Part shown: piece after piece, positions 12,921 through 61,760 of the stretch
Numbering within the stretch: position 1 is the stretch's first letter
Layout: every line of letters begins with the position of its first letter
Source of the DNA: Amphiscolops sp. MND2022
Taxonomy: Eukaryota
DNA length: 64,000 bases
Direction of reading: 5' to 3'
NCBI GenBank assembly: GCA_964187785.1
Contig: OZ076413.1
Span: 46,376,001 to 46,440,000 of the forward strand
Made by a program: the position numbers and the translations under genes
Notes under the pieces: generated by a model
The model's input: only the letters and a program-made list of their open reading frames with translations
Told to the model about the DNA's origin: nothing
Database searches by the model: none

Positions 12921-13082
12921 TTAGAAAAATGTAGAATTTCAATTCTCAAACATGCGTCGAAACCACTTGAGAAACCACAGATTTTTTCCTTGAAAAATAA
13001 CGTTATTTTTCAAGGAAAAAATCTGTGGTTTCTCAAGTGGTTTCGACGCATGTTTGAGAATTGAAATTCTACATTTTTCTAA
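12921..13082. repeat. Perfect spacerless 162-bp palindrome
   Basis: 81-bp arms ttagaaaaatgtag...aaataac | gttattt...ctacatttttctaa, centred at 13001/13002. Confidence 0.95.
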
Positions 13083-20318: not shown

Positions 20319-22508
20319 CATTAGAGTGCACAGGCAAGCCTTATTTGCTCAAAGCGCAACATAGTGCTTTCAATATCTTGGATTCCACGACCATACCTTT
20401 AACCGTGCAAAATTGGCAAATTACGTCATTTGTCCCGGATTCCACGGATTTAGTCGTGGATTCCAGTAACAAATGCTTAGCTGTACGACTTTCGGCATGC
20501 AGCGGTGTCCCGGATTCCACAAAAACGTAAGTTTTGCGAAATGAACCAATCAGATTGCAGAAATCATAAATTTCCTGTATTCCACGACTTTATGCTTGAC
20601 GCGATACGCGGCATATTTTCTTGAATTAATTTCAAGTGGAAGACTGAACAAACAATATTATGCACACTTTTTCGTATATTAATTCAAAATGATTCAGACA
20701 ATCACACCAATATCACACAAAATTTTGAGATTTTTCAGTTTAGTACCAGTTTTGAAAAAACTGCCAGATCATCACAATCTGCCATTATTTGATGACATGC
20801 TTTAATTTTGGTACCAGTCATGAGTATCTCTCTTTGTACTTCTTGGACTTTTCGTGTCAATCAAAACAATTTCCTTTGATATAAGATTGATTCAATTCAA
20901 GTTCTTCTGCCTTTCTAATAATGATCATGCAAAATGAATATTAAATAACACAAATAATCGTATTTTTCAGTTTAGTACCAGTTTTGAACAAACTGCAAGG
21001 TCATCACAATCTGCCATTATTTGATGACATGCTTTAATTTTGGTACCAGTCATGAGTATCTCTGTTCGTACTTCTTGGATTTTTCGTGTCAATCAGAACA
21101 ATTTCCTTTGATATAAGATTGATTTAATTCAAGTTCTTCTGCCTTTCTAATAATGATCATGCAAAATGCATATTATATAGCACAAATATTCGTATTTTTC
21201 AGTTTAGTACCAGTTTTGAACAAACTGCAAGATCATCACAATCTGCCATTATTTGATGACATGCTTTAATTTTGGTACCAGTCATGAGTATCTCTCTTCG
21301 TACTTCTTGGACTTTTCGTGTCAATCAAAACAATTTCCTTTGATATAAGATTGATTCAATTCAAGTTCTTCTGCCTTTCTAATAATGATCATGCAAAATG
21401 AATATTAAATAACACAAATAATCGTATTTTTCAGTTTAGTACCAGTTTTGAACAAACTGCAAGGTCATCACAATCTGCCATTATTTGATGACATGCTTTA
21501 ATTTTGGTACCAGTCATGAGTATCTCTGTTCGTACTTCTTGGATTTTTCGTGTCAACCAGAACAATTTCCTTTGATATAAGATTGATTTAATTCAAGTTC
21601 TTCTGCCTTTCTAATAATGATCATGCAAAATGCATATTATATAGCACAAATATTCGTATTTTTCAGTTTAGTACCAGTTTTGAACAAACTGCAAGATCAT
21701 CACAATCTGCCATTATTTGATGACATGCTTTAATTTTGGTACCAGTCATGAGTATCTCTACTCGTACTTTGGGTCTTTTCGTGTCAATCAAAACAATTTC
21801 CTTTGATATAAACTTGAAATAATTTAAGTTCTTCTGCCTTTCTAATAATGATCATGCAAAATGAATATTATATTACACAAAGATTAGTATTTTTCAGTTT
21901 AGTACCAGTTTTGAAGAAACTGCCAGATCATCCCAATCTGCCATTATTTGATGACATGCTTTAATTTTGGTACCAGTCATGAGTATCTCTATTCGTACTT
22001 TTTGGATTTTTCGTGTCAATCAGAACAATTTCCTTTGATATAAGATTGACTTAATTCAAGTTCTTCTGCCTTTCTAATAATGATCATGCAAAATGAATAC
22101 TAAATAACACAAATTTTTAGATTTTTCAGTTTAGTACCAGTTTTGAACAAACTGCCAGATCATCACAATCTGCCATTATTTGATGACATGCTTTAATTTT
22201 GGTACCAGTCACGAGTATCTCTATTCGTACTTCTTGGATTTTTTGTGTCGATCAAAACAATTTCCTTTGATATAAAATTGAATTAATTTAAAATGATTAC
22301 TCAAAATCAGCGGACCAATCAGAGAGCAGCGGCAAAAGTGTCATTATAGCAGCAGTATTGGCGTGGAATCCAGGACAAGCACTGTCGTGGAATCCAAGAC
22401 ACGCTTAGCATCAAAGAGAAGTTTTGTCCTGGATTCCACGACTTTTCTCAATTTTCGTGTCCCCGATTCCACGAAAACAGCAAAATAGCTTGCCTGTGCA
22501 CTGTAATG
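20319..22508. mobile_element. Non-autonomous CACTA/EnSpm (CMC)-like DNA transposon, copy 1
   Basis: 21-bp TIR CATTA(G/C)AGTGCACAGGCAAGC, 2-bp TSD gt/gt, repeated GGATTCCAC subterminal motifs in both orientations, no transposase. Confidence 0.8.
20731..22290 (+). repeat. 232-bp satellite, about 6.7 units, with partial dimeric higher-order structure
   Basis: Unit starts at 20731, 20963, 21195, 21427, 21659, 21890 and 22122. Confidence 0.95.
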
Positions 22509-24669: not shown

Positions 24670-24792
24670 AAAATATTCGATAGGGTACCCCTGATACTTT
24701 GAAGTGTTCTAGAATTTTCTTGCTTGCTCTCTTCTAGAACACTTCAAAGTATCAGGGGTACCCTATCGAACATTTTCTTGCTTGCTCTCTTC
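24670..24792. repeat. Inverted duplication: 45-bp arms (1 mismatch), 17-bp spacer duplicated after the right arm
   Basis: Arms 24670-24714 and 24732-24776; spacer ttttcttgcttgctctc recurs at 24773-24789. Confidence 0.9.
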
Positions 24793-50329: not shown

Positions 50330-50527
50330 AAAACAAATTGCTCCACGCCAGATGAAAAACACACTATTGGAACAACATTTTTAAACCCTTCAATCATTAT
50401 CCCCAAAGGAGACGCAATAAAAGTTGTTTTAGATGCTAGACATTTAAACTCAAACACTAATCAAGAACTTGAATCTTAGCCCATTGAAAGTTTATCCCCT
50501 CAATTAGCTAGAGCTAACAAAAAATAC
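50330..50527 (+). pseudogene. pol: Outer gypsy RT, left part
   Basis: PKGDAIKVVLDARHLNSNT...QLARANKKY, ending at the insertion point. Confidence 0.85.
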
Positions 50528-51249
50528 TATAGCGAACCAGGCACTGCCATAGGCGGAGAGAGATGGCGAAAGGCAGATGCTTGGAAAGTAAATTATTAAA
50601 ACAACTTGCAACGCAACAATAACTTGTATCTTTATTATTTATCGCTCTTGAGAGTTCTTGAGAGTGCTCGAGAGAGCAATATAATGATTTCAAATATTTA
50701 ATCCCCTCTCTGCCGCTCAGCCGCAGCACTCCATTTCTACAATGTTTACATTATTAAGTAACTTGAGGCGCTTTTTAATTTCATTTATAAAAGAGTTGGA
50801 GACGAATTTCTTCTTATTCTTTACTATCGCGAATGCTTTCCCCACATTCCCCTCGTGTGCAATAAAATTATTAAACGTTAAAACGTGAAAACGAGTTTCT
50901 GTTGCAGATGCTTTCCCCACATTCCCCTCGTGTGCAATAAATAATTAAACGTTAAAAATTGAAAACGAGTTTGAGAAAAAGATTCGAACATTAGCAAACT
51001 CAACCGCTGAAATGTAAGTTGCTTCCCATACTAGTAATTTTATCTTGAAATTTTATCTTATCTGTTCACTAAATGAAGATAACTTAACTAAATTTTCTTG
51101 TCATAAATTAACTTTTCCTATTTCTAAAATTCTTTTCGTAGAAATCTTATAGAGATAACCCAATCATCAAAACACCAGCAATCGCCCTGCGCATTCGAGC
51201 TATAGTAACATTAATAGCAATATTGAACTAGGAAAAAGCGATTGTTAAA
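50528..51249 (+). repeat. 5' LTR
   Basis: Starts TATAGCG, ends GTTAAA. Contains a TATA (tttataaaag, ~50805), an internal ~90-bp duplication with AATAAA, and a candidate splice donor GTAAGT at 51014. Confidence 0.95.
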
Positions 51250-51250
51250 T

Positions 51251-51268
51251 TGGTGACAAGGGTGGGAT
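51251..51268 (+). promoter_or_regulatory. Primer-binding site, tRNA-Leu-like
   Basis: TGGTGACAAGGGTGGGAT, 1 nt after the LTR. Its complement ATCCCACCCTTGTCA-CCA fits the ATCCCAC...A-CCA end typical of tRNA-Leu. Confidence 0.7.
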
Positions 51269-51947
51269 ACCTCTATAAACAGTAAATTTTAATATTTTTT
51301 CAAGACTATTGTCAACCCCGTATTGTCCGGCCCTGACCAAACCTCCCAAAGTAAAGCCTAGCCTGCCTTGGCAGTGTACAACAGGAATTAGATCCTAGTA
51401 GGCCTTTTAAACTCGCCTCCACGGCTGATTAGAAAAGGAACCTTTCCCTTTGTTAATTTCACGTTTCTCACGAAACCTAATGGTTAGTAGCGTGTAAAAC
51501 AAACGGTCCAGTAGTAATTTGTTTCTCCATCAACCTGAATTAAATTAGTGAGAGAATTGAAGCGGATTTAAACTGTTTTCAAGTTTTTTTTATCCCGGTA
51601 AAATTAAATGTTCCATTGGACCTAAGCACTGAGAAAGCCAGTCTCAATATAGTGCTCCTCACCAGATGCAGCTTCTATGAAACAGGAAGGTCATAGTGCC
51701 CAGTATAAGAATCCAAATTAGCTTAAGGGGCGCTGGTGAGGGAAGGCTGCGCAGTCTGTTATCAGGCTAGCGTTACTAGCTGAAGACAGGTTCCAAGGAA
51801 CTTATAGGAGTCCTTACCGGGCGTGAAAATTTCGATGGAGAAACAATGAACTAGTAAACCGTATTAACTCTTCTTCCTAAATCAAATCTTTTCCAAACTT
51901 TGAGCGTCTAAATAACGTGTTTCCTATTATTTTCACTTACATCATCA

Positions 51948-52217
51948 ATGCCTTGCTCACACGTTCAAAACACTCAGTTACCACTATATGTAATACCCCA
52001 GCAAAACTACCGACCCCCTAGTCCACCACCGTCGTACGATCATGATAGAGAGACTACTGTTTTTTCGCCGTGTGTCATGTTTTTATTAGTTTTTGTTAAT
52101 GCCCTAGCACTTGTCATAGTAGTTGTAGCGATTTGTGGACTCTCCTTTGAAATCAGCAAAGAGAACATAACTTGCCGTAGGGCCGAAGCCCTAACTGTTG
52201 ACTATCACCAGAGCTAA
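51948..52217 (+). CDS. Accessory sORF1: 89-aa single-pass membrane protein with LPLY and PPSY motifs
   Basis: ATG start; LPxY at aa 11-14, PPxY at aa 27-30, hydrophobic helix at aa ~42-65, sequon NIT at aa 73-75. Confidence 0.65.
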   Translation: MPCSHVQNTQLPLYVIPQQNYRPPSPPPSYDHDRETTVFSPCVMFLLVFVNALALVIVVVAICGLSFEISKENITCRRAEALTVDYHQS

Positions 52218-52225
52218 AATTTAAT

Positions 52226-52633
52226 TTGTGTTTTTCGATGTATTCTTTTAGTATCCCGGTTTCGATTCTCACTAACGTACCGTCAGAGAACCTCATAATA
52301 CCTTGTTATTTTTGCCAAGCAAAACTTTTCAAAATCCCTTTCTCGCATCGACCAGAAGGACGTTTCACCGCGCACCAACTAACTTTTCACATACAGCTAG
52401 AGGCGGTTCATTATTGGCAGCATAAAAACACTTACGAAAAGTCTCCTTACAGTCCTCTGGACCACGCGACAAGTGTAAAGGCATCAAGTGCCTCCTTTTT
52501 CCCGCATTTAGCTCAAAGTTGGTATTCACAGATTGAATTCATTGCCTCCCATGTCTCTGATTCCTCCCTGTTGAGATTTCATGACTGCCAAATGCCAAAT
52601 TTATTTTATAGTACTCCTATGCTCCGCCGCTAA
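52226..52633 (+). CDS. Accessory sORF2, up to 135 aa, unknown function
   Basis: Open frame filling the gap between sORF1 and gag, with a CYFC motif and several His residues. Start codon uncertain. Confidence 0.4.
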   Translation: MCFSMYSFSIPVSILTNVPSENLIIPCYFCQAKLFKIPFSHRPEGRFTAHQLTFHIQLEAVHYWQHKNTYEKSPYSPLDHATSVKASSASFFPHLAQSWYSQIEFIASHVSDSSLLRFHDCQMPNLFYSTPMLRR

Positions 52634-52681
52634 AACATTTGAACCTACAGACTCCGAAATTTCGTAACCGTTTGAATTAAA

Positions 52682-53905
52682 ATGGCAACGCCATCTACAC
52701 CGTCAACTACAGGTACTTCCACCGCCTCAGTGTCGACACCCTCGCCAGCAACAACGACAACAAGTGCGAGTGTTAGTGCCGGTGGGAGTAGCTCGGCTAC
52801 TCCGGGGCACTCGTCAGCTTCCACAAGCACAACAATGAGTACTACGACAACTCCCACAGCCTCATTTTTTACTATCCCTGGCACGTCTAGGCCACCTCCG
52901 AATACACCATATATTGCCCCGCTCCCGTCATGCTTGATGCCCGAATCCTTCACGGGTAAGGGCGATTTTGAAGATTACCTTCAACAATTCAACACCGCAG
53001 CACTTTTATCAGGCTGGTACTCGACCGCGCACGATAATCGCCCCCATTACTTCGCATTACGCCTGAGAGATAATGCGCTCCACTTCTACACAACTCTGTC
53101 CGCCGCCCAACAAACAAATTTTGATCAATTGATTGACGCTTTCCGACAGAATTACACTACCAATGGGGACATTTTGAAGGCCAGGTTGAAAGCTGCTAAA
53201 CAGCAGCCTAACCAGGATATTTCAGCATTCCTGTGTGACGTGCGCACATTAGCTCGACGGGCATACCGAGACACGCCTGGCCTGATTGACCCTATGGTAA
53301 TGACATGTTTCATAGAGGGCCTTAAAGATAAGACGCTCCGGTTGGAGTTGCGAAAGGCCAAACCAGCAACAGCTGATCAGGCTTTAACGTTGGCGATGGA
53401 ACTCAATTCGTTCCTAGAAATTGAATGTGGGGGCGCGAAAGCGTCTCAACTCGTCAATCGGGTATCTACTGACGATACTCCTGCAAGTGATCTAATGACG
53501 GAGTTTGTTCGAACTCTACGGCAAGAACTGCAGAGGAGCCGACCACAGAATAGTGGTTAAGGGCCTCAAGGGGACGGTAGGCGCAACAATAGCCCCTCAA
53601 ACCTAAGACCCCGATCTGAAAGTAACGATTCTACTAAGAGTAACCCATCTGTCCGCTTCCAGTCTGCCCAGAATTCCTCCAATTATCGAAACAACGAAAG
53701 TGGGAACAATAAGCGAAACAGAGAGAGTTCACCTCATCCTTCAAAGAAAAGGGATGACAAAACAACAGAAAGTAACAAGAAAATGTGTGATCGTTGCAAG
53801 CGTACTAATCACGCAACAAAGGACTGCAAGGCGTGTTACAATTGCCTAAAGGTCGGTCACTTTCGAAGGGACTGCACCGCCGATAAAAAGAAACCTTTAA
53901 ACTGA
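52682..53905 (+). pseudogene. gag: gag, 407 codons with one premature TAA at 53558
   Basis: S/T-rich N-terminus, PESFTGKGDFEDYLQQF capsid-like region; the frame continues past the TAA to CDRCKRTNHATKDC and CYNCLKVGHFRRDC, then TGA at 53903. Confidence 0.92.
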
Positions 53906-53945
53906 ACGAGTCTACGCTCACGGGTCGAAGCGCAGACGAGACCAC
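53896..53945 (+). promoter_or_regulatory. -1 ribosomal frameshift signal
   Basis: T TTA AAC heptamer (53896-53902) just before the gag stop, followed by a gtct-a-cgct/agcg-c-agac stem. The -1 frame is open into protease. Confidence 0.85.
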
Positions 53946-56310
53946 CGAAAATGGCCCACAAATTCAGACGCTCAACTCTGTGATAGATCACAGAAGTGTT
54001 TTTGTCCAGTTATCTATATGTGGTAAGATAATCGAGGCTGTGTGTGATAGTGGAGCAAGCGTGTCTTGTCTGAGTTCGAATGTCTTTGACCAAATTAAAC
54101 AGTTACAGAAATTAAAGCTGGAGCCAACGCAAGAAAAGCTCGTGGCAGCTAACAAACTACCAATTCAAACGCACGGCAAAGTGCTTCTGTTGTTGAAAAT
54201 TGGACCTAAACAGTTCGAACATGTTTTTCATGTCTTGGAACATTCAGAAGCCGATTGTTTGATCGGATTAGACTTCCTAAAGAAACATAGGTGTGACCCA
54301 TTGATTTCAAAAGACGTACTCCGGTTGGATGATGACACGCAAGTGCCCTTGTATCATCGAGAAATCGATGAGGGAACGACTTCCGTATTTCGAGTAGTCG
54401 TATCAGAGACCGTTTCGGTACCGGCAGGTCACTCGATGATAGTGCCTGCGCTTATGCAAGACTGGAAACGTCCGTTGCATGAAACAGTGTCCATATTTGA
54501 ACCGAATGATCGGTTCGATGGGACAAAGGAGGCAGTTGCTCCAAACATGCTGTTCAACTTGGCCGAGCCAACCGTACCCATGACGGTGGAAAACACGGGC
54601 AATGAACCACTCACAATTTATGAGAAAACGACATTGGGCACCTCTGAAATCCTTCCCATTAGAGCCCTGAGGAGCATCTCTCCTCCGAAAAGCGAAGCGA
54701 TGGGACGTGAGAAGCTGGACCCAGCTTATGATTTGAAATATGTGATTGACTCTGTCAGTCCCGAAATACCGCTGAAATTAAAAAAACAATTCGGGGATCT
54801 TGTCAATGAATTTGAAGATGTGTTCTCCAAGAACCAATGGGATATAGGTCGTTGTGACGCCACTAGTCACAAAATCGATCTCCTACCTGGCTCAAAACCA
54901 AATAAATTACCGAATCGCCGCATGCCATTGCACTACAAAGAAGACCTGCAAGAAAATATAGATGCCTTCTTGGATAAACAATTTATTGAACCCTGCCACA
55001 GTCCATACAGCGCACCGGCAATGCTCGTACCAAAAAAAACGACAAGCTGCGCCTAGTAATAGATTATAGGCAATTGAACAATCAAACGATAAAGTCCTGC
55101 TGGCCGATTCCGTCAATTGAAGAAATTTTCGACACGCTGGAGGGAAGTGCGTTCTTCTCAACAATCGATATGTCTTGGGGATTTTATCAAATACCCATGG
55201 ATGATAAAAGTCAAGATTATACTGCTTTCAGTACACCGTTTGGCTCTTTCAAATGGCTCCGGATGCCAATGGGCCTTTCGAACAGTCCACCTATGTTTCA
55301 GAGTTTAATGGAAGTAGTTCTTTCCAAGTTGATCTGGAAAACTGTCGTCCCGTACTTAGATGATTGTATCATTTTTGCGGCAACACCCGACGAACATATC
55401 CGTAGGATTCGAGAAGTCCTAGTTCGCTTCCGGGCAGCGAATCTGAAAATTAATCCTCTGAAATGTGAGTTCTTTAGAACAAAAGTACAGTTTCTGGGCC
55501 ATGTCATTAGTAAAGATGGTCTACAGGTGGACCCCGAGAAAATTGCTGCTGTCAAACAGTTCCCCGTTCCGGCCATACAAACTCATGTCAAATCATTTCT
55601 GGGACTTTGCTCATATTATCGGCGATATGTGAAGAATTTCGCCGATATTGCAAGACCACTACATAAGGCCAGTGAGACAACTACCACCTTCAAATGGACA
55701 CCTGAAGCACAAGACGCTTTCGACAAACTGATTAACGACAACACCAATTTTAGCTTTTCCATCTATGAAAGAGCCGTTTATTTTGTACACGGATGCTAGT
55801 TTGTCAGGAATGGGGGCAGTCTTAGCTCAAGTTCAAGACGGAAAGGAACGAGCTATTTGTTATGCTTCCAAAGCTCTTTCACGGTCTCAAATGAATTACT
55901 CAGCTACTAAACGCGAACTCCTGGCGGCTGTACATTTCACACGTCACTTTAAACATTACCTACTGGGCCGTAAGTTCATTCTCAGAACTGATCACAGCGC
56001 TCTGCGCTGGTTGCATAACTTCAAAGACCCAGATGGTCTTGTAGCTCGTTGGCTTGAAAAACTAGCCCAGTTTGACTACGATGTGGAACACCGACTAGGG
56101 AAATCCATCGGTCATGCCGATGGACTTTCTCGAATTCCTACAAAACTGGTTTTGCTCGTCTCAGAGGAGCCCAACGTCGCGGGGGTTGAACAAACAGGCG
56201 AGTGGCCTAACGCTCAATCCGCGAGAGATATCAATGACATACCGCCCGCCCCGGCTCCCATTCCGGGGGACGTCTTAGAACGTCTACCTTCCAAGTGTAG
56301 AGTGATTTGA
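53896..56310 (+). pseudogene. pol: pol: protease, RT and RNase H (two frameshifts, stop at 56308)
   Basis: VCDSGASVSC (protease); IDYRQLN, LRMPMGL and YLDDCII (RT); LYTDASLSGMGAVLAQ, ELLAAVHF and RTDHSAL (RNase H). Breaks at ~55035 (A-run) and ~55740. Confidence 0.95.
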
Positions 56311-56373
56311 TCCAAATCATCGGAACCCCTACGGCGAAGGGACGTTTTTGAAGTGGCAACGGAACCGAAGAAT

Positions 56374-56787
56374 TACACCGAGATCAATGGCGACTTGTTT
56401 GACTCAAAGGACTCAATAGCCCATTGTGTCTCAGCGGATTTCAAGATGAGTTCGGGGATAGCTCGGTCTATCAAACGGAAATATCCCACTGTGCATCCGG
56501 GACGTGTCCGATATTACGATGTCCCTCTGTGGACTCAGTGGCTACCGGAAACCAAGAGGTATATTTATCACCTTCTGACGAAGGATCGTTTCTACCATAA
56601 ACCGACATATGCGGCTCTTCGAGCGCATTTGGAACGCATGCGTGAACATGCCGAAGCACACGGCGTGATGGCGATTAGCATACCTCAAATTGGTTGTGGC
56701 CTTGACCAGTTGGAATGGCCTTTGGTACGCACCATAATCCAAGAAATCTTTGAACCCTCGGACTTTCGCATCACTGTCTACTTTCTT
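56374..56787 (+). CDS. TARG1/OARD1-class macrodomain embedded in pol between RNase H and the integrase region
   Basis: GDLF..DSIAHCVSADFKMSSGIA, YIYHLLTK..YHKPTY, IPQIGCGLDQLEW and ITVY align with human OARD1 motifs; same reading frame as the RNase H ORF. Confidence 0.93.
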
Positions 56788-56859
56788 GATCCTTCCACAC
56801 CCGTTTTGAACCATGATGAAACTGAAATACTCGAGGCGCCCGATACAGAGACCAACAAC

Positions 56860-57112
56860 CCTACCGAAAACATCCGCAAAGGACAAGATGCTGATGAATC
56901 GTTACACTTAGAACGAGAGTGGGTACGACGAGGCCGTTTACCACAAAAAAATGATTTGAAGGGATCACCCGAGCTCGCGTGGAAGCTGTATAATCAATTT
57001 CACAGTCTATACCTCTTGAATGATGTATTATGTCGGAAATTTGAACCCACCGGTGGCGATCTACCGTTCCTACAGCAAGTAGTGCCTCCGGCCCTTGTAG
57101 ATGATGTCCTGT
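56860..57112 (+). pseudogene. pol: Pre-integrase segment truncated by a deletion
   Basis: IRKGQDAD..EWVRRG..LYNQFHSL...VLCRK..QQVVPPALVDDVL normally precedes the integrase HHCC finger. No HHCC or DDE core follows. Confidence 0.8.
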
Positions 57113-57130
57113 CGTCCCGTTCTCTTTCAG
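57112..57130 (+). promoter_or_regulatory. Candidate env splice acceptor
   Basis: cgtcccgttctctttcag| ends at 57130, 16 nt before cgccATGc. Confidence 0.6.
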
Positions 57131-57146
57131 AAAATTCCCAATCGCC

Positions 57147-59414
57147 ATGCCTCCTTGTGCATTTTGGGTTGTGTGTCTTCTTACCATAGACATTCCTCTC
57201 TCGTGCGCTCAGGTTCAGTTCAGTACTCATCTCAACGACAACTTGGAACAACCTGTTTTCAAAAAGGGTGCTGCTTTCGTATTCAAATACCAAGCAGTCA
57301 CCTCTGAGAGTGAGAGTAAGGTTCGTGTATTTTCCCCTTTTCCTCAGATGCCAACAATCAGCCTCACCCGTGCTCTAGCAGTTGTAGAGGCCTTTAAAAC
57401 CAAACCCCGCGGCATCGGTTCCATGTATGTTAACACACGCTGTGAATTTACGAACTTCAACAACACTTACACCCTACTTCTCGAGCAACTAGAGACGCGA
57501 GTCCGCTTTCTGCAGTTGGAACTAGCAGCCGCTACAGAGGAGGAACCCACCTTGATGGAAGTAGCGAGATCATTTATTCCACCTAGCATGAAGAAAGATA
57601 GTGCACCTAAACGACAACGTCGTGCTTTTTGCGCTATCGCCGCAATAGCAGCTGGAGCGGGAATGATTCTGGGTGAACCCGTCAAAGAGGCAGCGTGCAC
57701 CGCGCTCTCCATTTTCAATTTATGCCGCAATGACGATGCCCTGTCAAAAGATGTCGATCAAATTATGACCAAACAGAAAACAATAATCGAAACATTGCAA
57801 CGCGTACAGAGTCAAAATGATCAAAACTTCTTCTTACTGGGAAATGAAATCAAGGGCACTCAAGAGAGCGTCACGAATTTCAGGGATAAAGTGGGAGAAC
57901 GCTTCCAGCAAATTGAATATTATTTAGTGAACGCTACTAGATACTTGACTGGAAGTAGTCTAGAATGCGATAAAGTAATAGTTCGACATATTCATCTTTT
58001 GCAGTATATTCGTAATTATATTTATCAATTGGGTACCTTGTACACACATTTGAAGTCGTATCGTGCCGCTTTTTACGCTTATCGTATTTCGCTCTTCACG
58101 ACAATTTCATCCTTAGCTGGTGGTTATATTACACCACAATTTCTGCTTCCGAAACAGGTTGCTGAAATTGTCAAAGAGTTGGCCGAAGACGAAGTTCTGC
58201 GGGGAACTAAATTGTCTCCTGCAATTCGCCCTGGTTTTGAGGCAATTCACTACGAGATTCAACTTGTCCTCGAAGTAACTCAGATACCTCGTGGAATCTC
58301 GGTAATACTTGGGATCCCGATGAATTCAAAATCGTCGACATTTGATATCTATCACGCGACCCCTTTATATCAGCCCAACAATGACCAGAAAACGGCCTCT
58401 CTTTTCAGTTTCACAAATCCGTTCCTCGCACTCTCCACCGACAATAGCAGATTCGCAGAGCTAGGAGCCAATACGCTGCAACAATGCTCGGGTAATAACA
58501 GAATAAAACTTTGCCGGAAGGGTTTCTCTACTACCACGGACGAAACCCTGTTGTACCTGGGCTCTCTGTTTTATAACTATGACATCCCAGCCCTGCGAAA
58601 TTGCGAGGTTAAAACCGTTCTGTTTCCGGACGCTCCTCAAGCCTTCTATCTGGCCGAAGGGATGTACCACATCATCTCTCGAGCCCCACATCTTCAGATA
58701 AAGAACGATAGTCGAGCTACAGACCTGTCCATCTCTACCATAAATTGTCAGGCTTGTGTGATGCGCCCCAGCTGTTCTAGTATCATTTCATTTAATCAAG
58801 GAGATCTCGTTTTGTATCCTGATATGGATTTTTGTGAAACAAACCCTGAACCTTTTCTAGCTTCCATTGAATTAACCCCCTCACTTAATAAGGTCTTTTC
58901 GCATGTCCCATCGATTAGTAACGCTGATTTTCATGCCTATTCTCTGGGTGAAGCACGTCAGTCAGTCCTAGGTACTTTACGCCTTGAACTGGCTGAGCTA
59001 CCAGACGTCGAACAAATGACTGAAGAAACTCTTGACGAGTTAACTCAACCAATCGCTAGCTACTATTCAGCAATCTCGCCAGCCACGTCAGCAGCCTTGG
59101 AATCTTATCTGCCCACTCGAACGGCTATCCTTATGTCAACTCTGTCGATTACTATCTCGCTGTTAACATTCTCGATAAGCTTCACGCTTTTCCGACGACA
59201 GTGGCGACGCCTCTTTACTAATCCACAAATATTCTTTCGGGGTCATTCAGGACGTTTCATCCACATTGTCAACACCGCAAGTGATGAATATGAAGAAACG
59301 GATCCAACTTTTTTGTACCTGACCGTTATGGAGTTTCAAGCTCTTGTTTCTCTGGCAAGAGAAACAATTAATCAACCTATACCTCCTAACACGAATTACA
59401 CTACACTTTTCTGA
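57147..59414 (+). CDS. env: Envelope glycoprotein, class I fusion protein (baculovirus F / errantivirus Env-like), 755 aa, intact
   Basis: Signal-peptide-like N-terminus; furin site RQRR (aa 156-159) followed by hydrophobic AFCAIAAIAAGAGMILG; heptad region; GYITPQF, VILGIPM..FDIYHATP and a Cys-rich region; TM from aa ~659; cytoplasmic tail. Confidence 0.9.
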   Translation: MPPCAFWVVCLLTIDIPLSCAQVQFSTHLNDNLEQPVFKKGAAFVFKYQAVTSESESKVRVFSPFPQMPTISLTRALAVVEAFKTKPRGIGSMYVNTRCEFTNFNNTYTLLLEQLETRVRFLQLELAAATEEEPTLMEVARSFIPPSMKKDSAPKRQRRAFCAIAAIAAGAGMILGEPVKEAACTALSIFNLCRNDDALSKDVDQIMTKQKTIIETLQRVQSQNDQNFFLLGNEIKGTQESVTNFRDKVGERFQQIEYYLVNATRYLTGSSLECDKVIVRHIHLLQYIRNYIYQLGTLYTHLKSYRAAFYAYRISLFTTISSLAGGYITPQFLLPKQVAEIVKELAEDEVLRGTKLSPAIRPGFEAIHYEIQLVLEVTQIPRGISVILGIPMNSKSSTFDIYHATPLYQPNNDQKTASLFSFTNPFLALSTDNSRFAELGANTLQQCSGNNRIKLCRKGFSTTTDETLLYLGSLFYNYDIPALRNCEVKTVLFPDAPQAFYLAEGMYHIISRAPHLQIKNDSRATDLSISTINCQACVMRPSCSSIISFNQGDLVLYPDMDFCETNPEPFLASIELTPSLNKVFSHVPSISNADFHAYSLGEARQSVLGTLRLELAELPDVEQMTEETLDELTQPIASYYSAISPATSAALESYLPTRTAILMSTLSITISLLTFSISFTLFRRQWRRLFTNPQIFFRGHSGRFIHIVNTASDEYEETDPTFLYLTVMEFQALVSLARETINQPIPPNTNYTTLF

Positions 59415-59523
59415 AACCAACACCTAAACATATTCTTCTTTCTGTCTTTCTATCAATGTCATCATTTGTTTCATTTTTCAGCAAACTAGACACACTCAAC
59501 TCAGTTGATGAAAGTAGGATAGG

Positions 59524-59872
59524 TTCTAACTTTGTTAGAAGTCTCCCAACGCTTGCGTTGGTGTTTGTCTTACCACTTCATTGTGTGTAGCCCAATTTGG
59601 TGTATAATTAATTTGAGGACGTCCCTCAAACCTTCTCACTTATTGCCTTGATCTCCCCGTTAGTATGCACCTTTTTAGCCTGTCACAAGTATCCTAGTCT
59701 GTTTCCCATGCAGCTAGTGTAGTTAATGAGATTATCGTCTCCTAGTTGCTTATGTATATCAACTAGTGCGCTTAAGTTCATCACTCTTGATGTATCCTAG
59801 TTGTGTCCCAACCTCAACTAGTGTAGCAAAATAACAGTCCCAGTTTCCCAGTTGTATCTCAAACGCAACTGG
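59524..59872 (+). other. Hairpin cluster including a four-unit stem-conserved, loop-variable array
   Basis: Array stems at 59694-59717, 59742-59766, 59797-59821 and 59848-59872; further hairpins at 59524-59540, 59546-59561 and 59612-59630. Confidence 0.85.
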
Positions 59873-59976
59873 TGCAGCCGCCACAAGTTACTCCTCATCT
59901 ATGTTAGTCATTTGGCTACAGCGTCATTCGAATAAATGTTCTTCGTCAAAACTAATCACACGCATTCTAAAGGAAG

Positions 59977-60999
59977 GTGTTTCTAACGATTCGTTGTTAC
60001 AGGTACAAAATTGATGCCGCAGACAATTCTCCAGCTCCATTCTTGCTCTCCGATGGGCGGGTACACCATCTGGCCCGTGGCCACATCGTCCGTGTCCTAG
60101 ATGTTATGGACTATCGTGTCATACGATGTAACCCACATCGCCAAACAGTCATGATCCAAAAGATTAATTCTAATGACCGCCCCTTTGGCAGAAACGCTAC
60201 TGAACTCTGGTTGCCACCCCCGTTTAAATCGACTATTGCAATCGATGTAAATTTTGACCCAATTCCAATGGAGTGCGACTGTCCATCCCCCTTGCCACCC
60301 CGAGTATACCCAGATATGGTTGATGCGACAGTGGAGGCCTCCTTAGGACAGGACGAAAGTCTCGAGTTTTTGACCGAGGAGTTCAGTTCGGTACAAGACC
60401 TCCACAGTCAACTAGAAGAGGCTCGAAAAGCCTCCGAAGTTACATTCAACTTAATGAAAGAAAGTGTGGAGATGAGCCGCCAAAGAGCAGAGCATATTAC
60501 GGCTTTGGAGACAGAGATAGAGGGTTTTAAAGTTCGTCTGAAAAACTTAACGTAGGAAAATGAGTCGCTACTCCGTCACTTATTAGAGCAAAGTGCCGAA
60601 TTAAGCACTTTACGTCTGGAAACAGCAACGACGAGTAATCACCAGTTAACCACCAAAATGCTCTGTCACCAGATGTCTACATACCCCCCATCACTAGACT
60701 ACGTTGACAACAACCTTTTATTCCATCTTCTTTGCAGTCCGCCGACCTCAACCACAAAGGAATTGAAGGAAAATGCCCACCATTTGTTGAGGTTGATTCA
60801 CCCGGACAAAAATCCTTCTGTCTCCCCAGCGGTTGCCAAATTGGTACCGATAATCAAGGAAGCCCGGAATATCCTAACAGACCCGACCCTCAACAGGATT
60901 TACCAATGTTGTGGGATACAAGGTGTAAGACGTGCGCAAAGGCGCCTTCGGACCTGCATGGACTGTGATCCGCATGTCCGCAAATGGCTGGCCCCTTAG
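59977..60999 (+). pseudogene. Accessory ORF4: unknown N-terminal domain, coiled coil, C-terminal DnaJ J-domain (one in-frame TAG at 60553)
   Basis: ORFs 59977-60555 and 60658-60999 share a frame and the sequence between them is open. J-domain LFHLL...KELKENAHHLLRLIHPDKN...IIKEARNILTDPTLNRIYQCCG, with HPD at 60799-60807. Confidence 0.85.
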
Positions 61000-61018
61000 T
61001 TGCGAGGACGCAACCTTC

Positions 61019-61032
61019 AAAAGAGGGGGTGG
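61019..61032 (+). promoter_or_regulatory. Polypurine tract
   Basis: aaaagagggggtgg immediately before the 3' LTR. Confidence 0.8.
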
Positions 61033-61756
61033 TATAGCGAACCAGGCACTGCCATAAGCGGAGAGAGATGACGAATGGCAGATGCTTGGAAAGTAAATTA
61101 TTAAAACAACTTGCAACGCAACAATAACTTGTATCTTTATTATTTATCGCTCTTGAGAGTTCTTGAGAGTGCTCGAGAGAGCAATATAATGATTTTAAAT
61201 ATTTAATCCCCTCTGTGCCGCTCAGCCGCAGCACTCCATTTCTACAGTGTGTTTACATTATTAAGTAACTTGAGGCGCTTTTTAATTTCATTTAGAAAAG
61301 AGTTGGAGACGAATTTCTTCTTATTCTTTACTATCGCGAATGCTTTCCCCACATTCCCCTCGTGTGCAATAAATTATTAAACGTTAAAAATTGAAAACCA
61401 GTTTCTGATGCAGATGCTTTCCCCACATTCCCCTCGTGTGCAATAAATAATTAAACGTTAAAAATTGAAAACGAGTTTGAGAAAAAGATTCGAACATTAG
61501 CAAACTCAACCGCTGAAATGTAAGTTGCTTCCCATACTAGTAATTTTATCTTGAAATTTTATCTTATCTGTTCACTAAATAAAGATAACTTAACTAAATT
61601 TTCTTTGTCATAAATTAACTTTCTCTATTTCTAAAATTCTTTTCGTAGAAATCTTATAGAGATAACCCAATCATCAAAACACCAGCAATCGCCCTGCGCA
61701 TTCGAGCTATAGTAACATTAATAGCAATATTGAACTAGGAAAAAGCGATTGTTAAA
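61033..61756 (+). repeat. 3' LTR
   Basis: Direct repeat of 50528-51249 with about 15 differences. Confidence 0.95.
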
Positions 61757-61760
61757 ATAC

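Follow-up and report, generated by a model that had tools for sequence, protein, structure and literature searches.

Export of intron-keeping RNA by LTR retrotransposons is little known. A structured element of the kind to which the Rev response element (RRE) of HIV-1 belongs is kept in full-length and singly spliced RNA, as set out in the available part of PMC4588558, and the hallmark of Rev, in the available part of PMC10746203, is an Arg-rich RNA-binding and import domain. In the same accessible portions, export elements are described as often sitting between env and the 3' LTR (PMC4588558, PMC10746203). The Gypsy-type element Cer1 makes an export protein, CERV, from a spliced mRNA (PMC10309623, available in part); CERV is the sole invertebrate regulator that we found in print, and the available main text of that paper contains no occurrence of "response element", "RRE" or "cis-acting" and no target so named. 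In Drosophila gypsy, the env ATG is built from a donor AT and an acceptor G (PMC2585583, available in part). At the locus described here, a brief RNA motif with covariation, a possible reader, and precisely placed predicted splice sites together make the export question testable.

The window is the whole 64,000-nt stretch that was analysed (positions 46,376,001 to 46,440,000 of contig OZ076413.1, assembly GCA_964187785.1) in the 1.07-Gb genome of Amphiscolops sp. MND2022, which is assembled into chromosome-scale contigs; positions below are those of the window. The hairpin array is enclosed by an LTR element at 50528-61756, flanked by a 4-bp target-site duplication at 50524-50527 and 61757-61760. 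Fetched loci were sorted into families A to F, letters that are labels introduced here. The parts of the element, with relatives found by tblastn for the two upstream ORFs, are as follows.

50528..51249, + strand: 5' LTR, 97.5% identical to the 3' LTR over 725 columns
51251..51268, + strand: tRNA primer-binding site, assigned by position and its TGG start
51948..52217, + strand: upstream ORF 1, 89 aa, with a hydrophobic segment; relatives in families B and F
52238..52633, + strand: upstream ORF 2, 131 aa, with a CxxC motif; relatives in families B, E, and F
52682..57189, + strand: gag and pol (protease, RT, RNase H, macro domain), from Pfam
57147..59414, + strand: env-like gene of the fusion-protein F type, a weak Baculo_F match
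60003..60999, + strand: ORF4 exon, with SH3-like (KOW/Tudor) barrel, coiled coil, J-domain with HPD, and Cys-rich tail
61033..61756, + strand: 3' LTR, preceded by a polypurine tract

Along the element, Pfam matches fall in the order gag, protease, RT, RNase H, macro domain, weak F-type env, and then DnaJ, the env match to Baculo_F (E 0.0017) lying under the family cut-off. The start of the primer-binding site is identical in six of eight fetched copies. From its two LTRs, primer site, and gene order, and with a weak env match, this is an env-carrying, errantivirus-like Ty3/Gypsy element. It resembles the "ancient errantiviruses" of PMC13524379 (available in part) in being gag-pol-env, multi-copy, and young, with an F-type env; the available main text of that source contains no occurrence of "splic", "accessory" or "macro", and its supplements may list this element. 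Genome searches gave 71 matches for env and 88 for ORF4, and the window's env-ORF4 intergenic region has seven further genomic copies at 97-98%. The window copy has gag and pol in fragments and, relative to a sibling copy, is short of some 1.7 kb of integrase sequence, and its ORF4 is interrupted by a stop at 60553-60555.

Other features of the element and its surroundings were recorded. Two pre-gag ORFs were noted (51948-52633 in the window; loci L113, L114, L116, and L118), and family E apparently has four; together with ORF4, the pre-gag ORFs make up an unusually rich accessory gene set. The macro domain in pol lies 3' of RNase H (56353-57189) and is kept in 8/8 fetched copies. The LTR ends (50528 and 61756) are not TG...CA, and the env-bearing element is inserted within another RT-bearing element. 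Elsewhere, the window holds a perfect 81-bp palindrome (12921-13082), a 45-bp inverted repeat (24670-24776), and a 232-bp tandem repeat (20613-22303).

The array lies between the env stop and the fourth gene, ORF4, and consists of five units.

59541..59563, + strand: hairpin unit 0, GTCTC, a 6-bp stem of other sequence, TG
59689..59719, + strand: hairpin unit 1, bulged variant with GTATC lead and TG tail
59737..59768, + strand: hairpin unit 2
59792..59823, + strand: hairpin unit 3
59843..59874, + strand: hairpin unit 4, with a compensatory pair

An earlier note, made from the letters of the window, had described four hairpins, and these are present as it gave them: stems start at 59694, 59742, 59797, and 59848 (periods 48, 55, and 51), the last stem ends at 59872, and the loops of units 2-4 are as quoted. 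Its bulged unit 1, which has a bulged U and a differing upper stem, and its compensatory change in unit 4, a double change from U-A to C-G, were likewise confirmed. Unit 0, upstream, was overlooked in that reading. Its stem is unrelated to those of units 1-4 and it has the frame common to all units, GTNTC-[C...G]-TG, with a C-G pair closing the stem. The five framed units compare with a shuffle mean of 0.17, and five were reached in 0/1000 shuffles; three occur in the element's remaining 8165 nt. The exact stem pattern was found twice in the window and never in 100 shuffles, shuffled controls being a check that the earlier note had proposed. Folding of single units modestly beats shuffles (z -1.5 to -2.8), as does that of the 576-nt region (z -2.4), and in whole-region folds some arms pair across units instead. 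Rfam gave a best E of 0.69 for the window region and no match at five sibling loci. A genome-wide count of 210 versus 67 in the control was discarded as evidence, being inflated by an unrelated tandem repeat. That repeat, of 257 bp, contains a part that is tRNA-like by eye and a CCAGTTG hairpin, and is unrelated to the element (loci L051, L055, and L060).

When five diverged copies, which are mutually related and partly decayed, are set against the window, changes are seen at 23/206 positions in stems, 47/161 in loops, 87/248 in spacers, and 6/60 in GTNTC. On this comparison the loops of the window array are not free. The array could be a neutral by-product, a chance inverted repeat duplicated locally in tandem, and the family B units are indeed near-tandem copies, their number ranging from 3 to 7 sites from one insertion to another; plant Retand elements commonly carry, ahead of their 3' LTR, tandem arrays that are specific to a family and have no known function (PMC11963269, available in part). 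However, stems and the GTNTC lead change three times slower than spacers, Tandem Repeats Finder did not recognise the window array as a repeat, and a motif common to six families and compensatory changes, described below, also count against neutrality. We regard this explanation as very unlikely and as largely refuted already.

ORF4 proteins of the six families share 28-53% identity, and a hairpin array is kept between env and ORF4 in each family. Nine of 50 ORF4 loci had no env end or acceptor and were excluded from the intergenic motif and hairpin counts, and of the 58 weaker ORF4 matches without a locus, 20 were fetched. The motif G-U-N-U-C-C is common to all six families, almost only on the transcribed strand: of 41 intergenic regions, 40 have GTNTCC on the + strand, the remaining one having been cut down by deletion to 32 nt, and the - strands of the 41 regions have it twice in total. 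Enrichment of the motif by itself is weak for A2 (160 of 2000 shuffles), C (176), and F (479). In family A, the same six letters serve as the lead into the stems; families B-F have a second form, a hairpin with a G-C-closed UNUC loop.

Tetraloop hairpins of at least 5 bp, sought with a G demanded two bases past the stem so that this letter is partly built in, number four in family B, two in C, six in D, and four in E, with 0/2000 shuffles in each case. The single one in family F is marginal (24/2000 shuffles), family A has none of at least 5 bp, and a control of about 43 kb from the elements' 5' parts contains one. Across 38 unfiltered contexts, 123 of 152 cells are paired versus 97 in column shuffles (0/5000), and the loop-adjacent pair is C-G in 19 contexts, U·G in six, U-A in five, G·U in one, and unpaired in seven. 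The commonest bases after the motif are GTG (16/38), and a family A unit can thus be read as the tetraloop sequence interrupted, between its C and its G, by a stem. In family B, the same CUAG stem as in the window recurs several times, though blastn missed its intergenic DNA, and shows one further double change, from G-C to A-U. Tandem units of array, acceptor, and ORF4, without env, occur on contig C12 at 47.30 Mb (L124 and L125, period 1684 bp), with matches at C11 7.31 Mb and on C1120; separate 1782-bp tandem repeats at C12 56.78 Mb (L009, L011, and L012) combine the 3' end of env with portions of the intergenic region and of ORF4.

The variation also indicates which strand is read. Changes that G·U pairing makes usable on the + strand only account for 20 of 48 CUAG-type rows versus one for the - strand, and in the tetraloops for 11 cells favouring the + strand versus three for the other. 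Since the copies are related, these family, strand, and pairing counts are not independent events, and A-to-I editing of the stems, rather than selection, could be the source of the G·U bias. Nevertheless, given the motif on the transcribed strand in six families, the compensatory changes, and the G·U pairs, the hairpins are, on this evidence, real and selected RNA structure, read on the + strand. This upholds the proposal in the earlier note of selection on structure, and places it at the RNA level. The shared hairpin types follow family kinship, and co-evolution with ORF4 cannot be shown from them.

Protein-binding sites, one of the functions suggested in the earlier note, fit the data as RNA hairpins rather than as DNA operators. 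In the operator version, a dimeric DNA-binding protein such as an anti-silencing factor would sit on palindromic half-sites, and two 7-bp inverted half-sites with a spacer of 10-11 bp speak for it, as does an ORF4 protein with a predicted coiled coil and Tudor-like barrel. We judge it highly improbable: the variation is strand-biased as G·U pairing predicts, and unit 0 and the tetraloops keep pairing, not sequence or spacing.

The position of the array relative to two predicted splice sites bears on what the hairpins may do.

51011..51019, + strand: predicted splice donor in the 5' LTR, GT at 51014, exon ending AT
59983..60003, + strand: predicted branch point CTAAC, pyrimidine tract, and acceptor AG at 60001-60002, with exon G at 60003

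The donor (a slash marks the exon end) is AT/GTAAGT in families A, B, C, and E, where it precedes the primer site by 194-241 nt, AT/GTTAGT in D, and a weak AT/GTCTGT in F. Over all six families it lies 194-244 nt upstream of the primer site and always after AT in 6/6 examined, one copy per family, two of eight fetched 5' regions having been left out of the scan for having no primer site. The 3' LTR bears the same donor (61517-61525), which could splice into downstream host exons. We take CTAAC to be the branch point from its consensus. At the conserved ORF4 start, a T-rich tract precedes YAG/G, and 43 of 50 loci, from six families, have this acceptor in phase 2 at the homologous position. The search demanded AG and then G, so those letters are partly built in. 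The frame was not imposed, and phase 2 was found in 44 of the 47 loci with an acceptor among the 50 examined; in one of these 44, a copy with a changed acceptor, another site was counted. A phase-2 donor within env, gag, or the upstream ORFs was rejected as not conserved, and a probe for a retro-copied splice junction gave no matches.

ORF4 has no in-frame ATG upstream of its conserved start in 26 of 41 copies, including 7/7 of the window's family, and 15 of 41 do carry some in-frame ATG there; the first internal Met lies within or after the barrel. Joining the LTR donor AT to the acceptor G would create the ORF4 ATG by splicing. The in-frame ATG of env is missing in three of eight copies (families B, D, and F), and a phase-2 AG/G is present in env of B and D, passing the script filter, with one in F by eye only. 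In a literature search made mostly through listings, we found no start codon shared by two genes through one LTR donor.

The earlier note had also offered an IRES for ORF4, or small-RNA precursors. A structured region directly before ORF4 would suit either. The IRES is not supported, because ORF4 is without a start codon of its own and the conserved phase-2 acceptor and LTR donor explain initiation. Drosha substrates need about three helical turns, and stems of 5-8 bp with no Rfam match make small-RNA precursors unlikely. Taken together, an IRES or small-RNA source is hardly credible.

With the env stop ahead of it and the ORF4 acceptor behind it, the array falls in the predicted last intron, and by the same position genomic and env RNAs would keep it and the ORF4 mRNA would lose it. 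We give about an even chance to the reading that the array is an export or splice-switch signal of incompletely spliced element RNAs. What comes from sequence is the hairpins, with their strand and conservation, as well as the splice signals and the fold predictions. In the proposed mechanism, the hairpins would form an array of protein-binding sites in the element RNA, and the single 5' LTR donor would splice to env or, further on, to ORF4. A protein on the array would mark the RNAs that retain it for export, or block their last splice, and the loaded array would set the balance between regulator mRNA and structural RNAs. The use of these splice sites, the binding of a protein, its identity, and its action are what we infer. 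ORF4 itself as the reader, in the manner of Rev or CERV, is a tentative version of this reading and somewhat doubtful; a host factor as the reader, in the manner of a CTE, is less probable again.

Two other roles would use the same RNA. A signal for packaging, dimerisation, or localisation, with either Gag nucleocapsid or a transport adaptor as its reader, would be consistent with several small stable hairpins on the genomic strand that are absent from the predicted ORF4 mRNA, but we consider it unlikely. Nucleocapsids prefer exposed G, and the tetraloop is mostly pyrimidine (N is U in 25/38). The array would also be present in env mRNA, which we think a poor site for a genome-only signal. Kissing-loop dimerisation, raised in the earlier note, finds no footing in loops that are not self-complementary, the longest complement between or within window loops being 4 nt. 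Egl-BicD transport is driven by multiple stem-loops, but in the available part of the same source an Egl signal requires a pair of helices, each 6 bp or longer, with a 3' bulge between them (PMC13186709), and the folds predicted here have one helix of 5-8 bp and a weak lower stem.

The second role is a host-read stability or translation element that would shield env and genomic RNAs, whose 3' tail is long, from nonsense-mediated decay, as in Rous sarcoma virus, a precedent cited in the available part of PMC10309623. The array sits just past the stop codon of env and is followed by some 1.5 kb of RNA, and the intergenic regions are 57-65% pyrimidine versus 51% in the rest of the window's element. 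Even so, this is quite improbable in view of the paired stems with compensatory changes. RSV-type stability elements, unlike these, are loosely structured pyrimidine tracts.

Returning to the export or splice-switch reading, the candidate reader ORF4 is a protein of 330-360 aa. The predicted fold of a sibling's uninterrupted ORF4 (mean pLDDT 86) has a barrel at about 11-70, a long helix of 107 residues at 118-224, a J-domain, and a Cys-rich tail. The Pfam DnaJ match is over the cut-off, the fold match has Z 8.8-9.3, and HPDK is invariant in 6/6 families; as modelled, ORF4 is a J-domain protein with a helical J fold and HPD. The barrel is small and basic, with best matches to Spt5/NusG KOW domains (Z 7.1-7.5, rmsd 1.9-3.1, 51-67 aligned). 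Tudor and chromo domains (Z 6.5-7.0, with Tudor at 6.7-7.0) tie with KOW, and the barrel fold therefore cannot settle RNA binding. An Arg-rich patch, with 5-6 R/K in 10 aa, is present in families A and B only, C-F having 3-4, and the one Leu-rich export pattern scanned was found in one of six ORF4 proteins. Protein searches returned 7 and 112 ORF4 relatives, many weak ones matching the J-domain only; a metagenome scan with ORF4 gave 201 pattern matches, none confirmed, and the best ESM Atlas scores (0.79 and 0.81) were uninformative. In a literature search with thin coverage of subscription journals, we found neither this array nor a fourth gene with a J-domain described.

A bolder form of the proposal, drawn from the sequence features and put forward with some doubt, is that these are "complex" Ty3/Gypsy viruses with their own Rev-like switch, in which an ORF4 with a splice-made ATG coats the array before its own acceptor. 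ORF4 would thereby shut off its own splice, license export of genomic and env RNA, and use host Hsp70 via the J-domain. Because family A is without the tetraloop form, a single protein would need to recognise the motif in two different presentations.

Among known systems, those of the CTE/MTE type (M-PMV and MusD, from partly available sources) share the place between env and the 3' LTR and the many stem-loops. They need no element-encoded adaptor, however, and the array here is without an Rfam match and is followed by a further exon. The gypsy donor lies in the gag region and serves env, whereas the donor here belongs to the LTR and seems to be used for ORF4 in every family and for env in some of them. 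In the available part of its description, CERV of C. elegans Cer1 is like ORF4 an accessory protein with a spliced mRNA and a Cys-rich part in an env-bearing Gypsy/Ty3 element. It differs in sharing its start with gag and, compared by description, in having H, M, and G domains in place of the ORF4 barrel, coiled coil, and J-domain.

The likeness to HIV-1 Rev/RRE, as to Rex, Rec, and Rem, lies in several putative binding sites and a regulator predicted from the most spliced mRNA, and the predicted loss of the array from the ORF4 mRNA would parallel the HIV RRE, which is spliced out of the rev mRNA. Unlike the RRE, the element here lies outside env, is made of separate small hairpins, and has a Ty3/Gypsy host rather than a retrovirus; unlike Rev, ORF4 combines a barrel, coiled coil, and J-domain, and has no conserved Arg-rich or Leu-rich motif. 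As these two defining protein features were looked for and are not conserved in ORF4, the array/ORF4 system is not a member of the Rev/RRE type. By analogy, it may nevertheless work like Rev/RRE, and if the Rev-like switch is true, a protein and its RNA target would both be visible in sequence, in six families.
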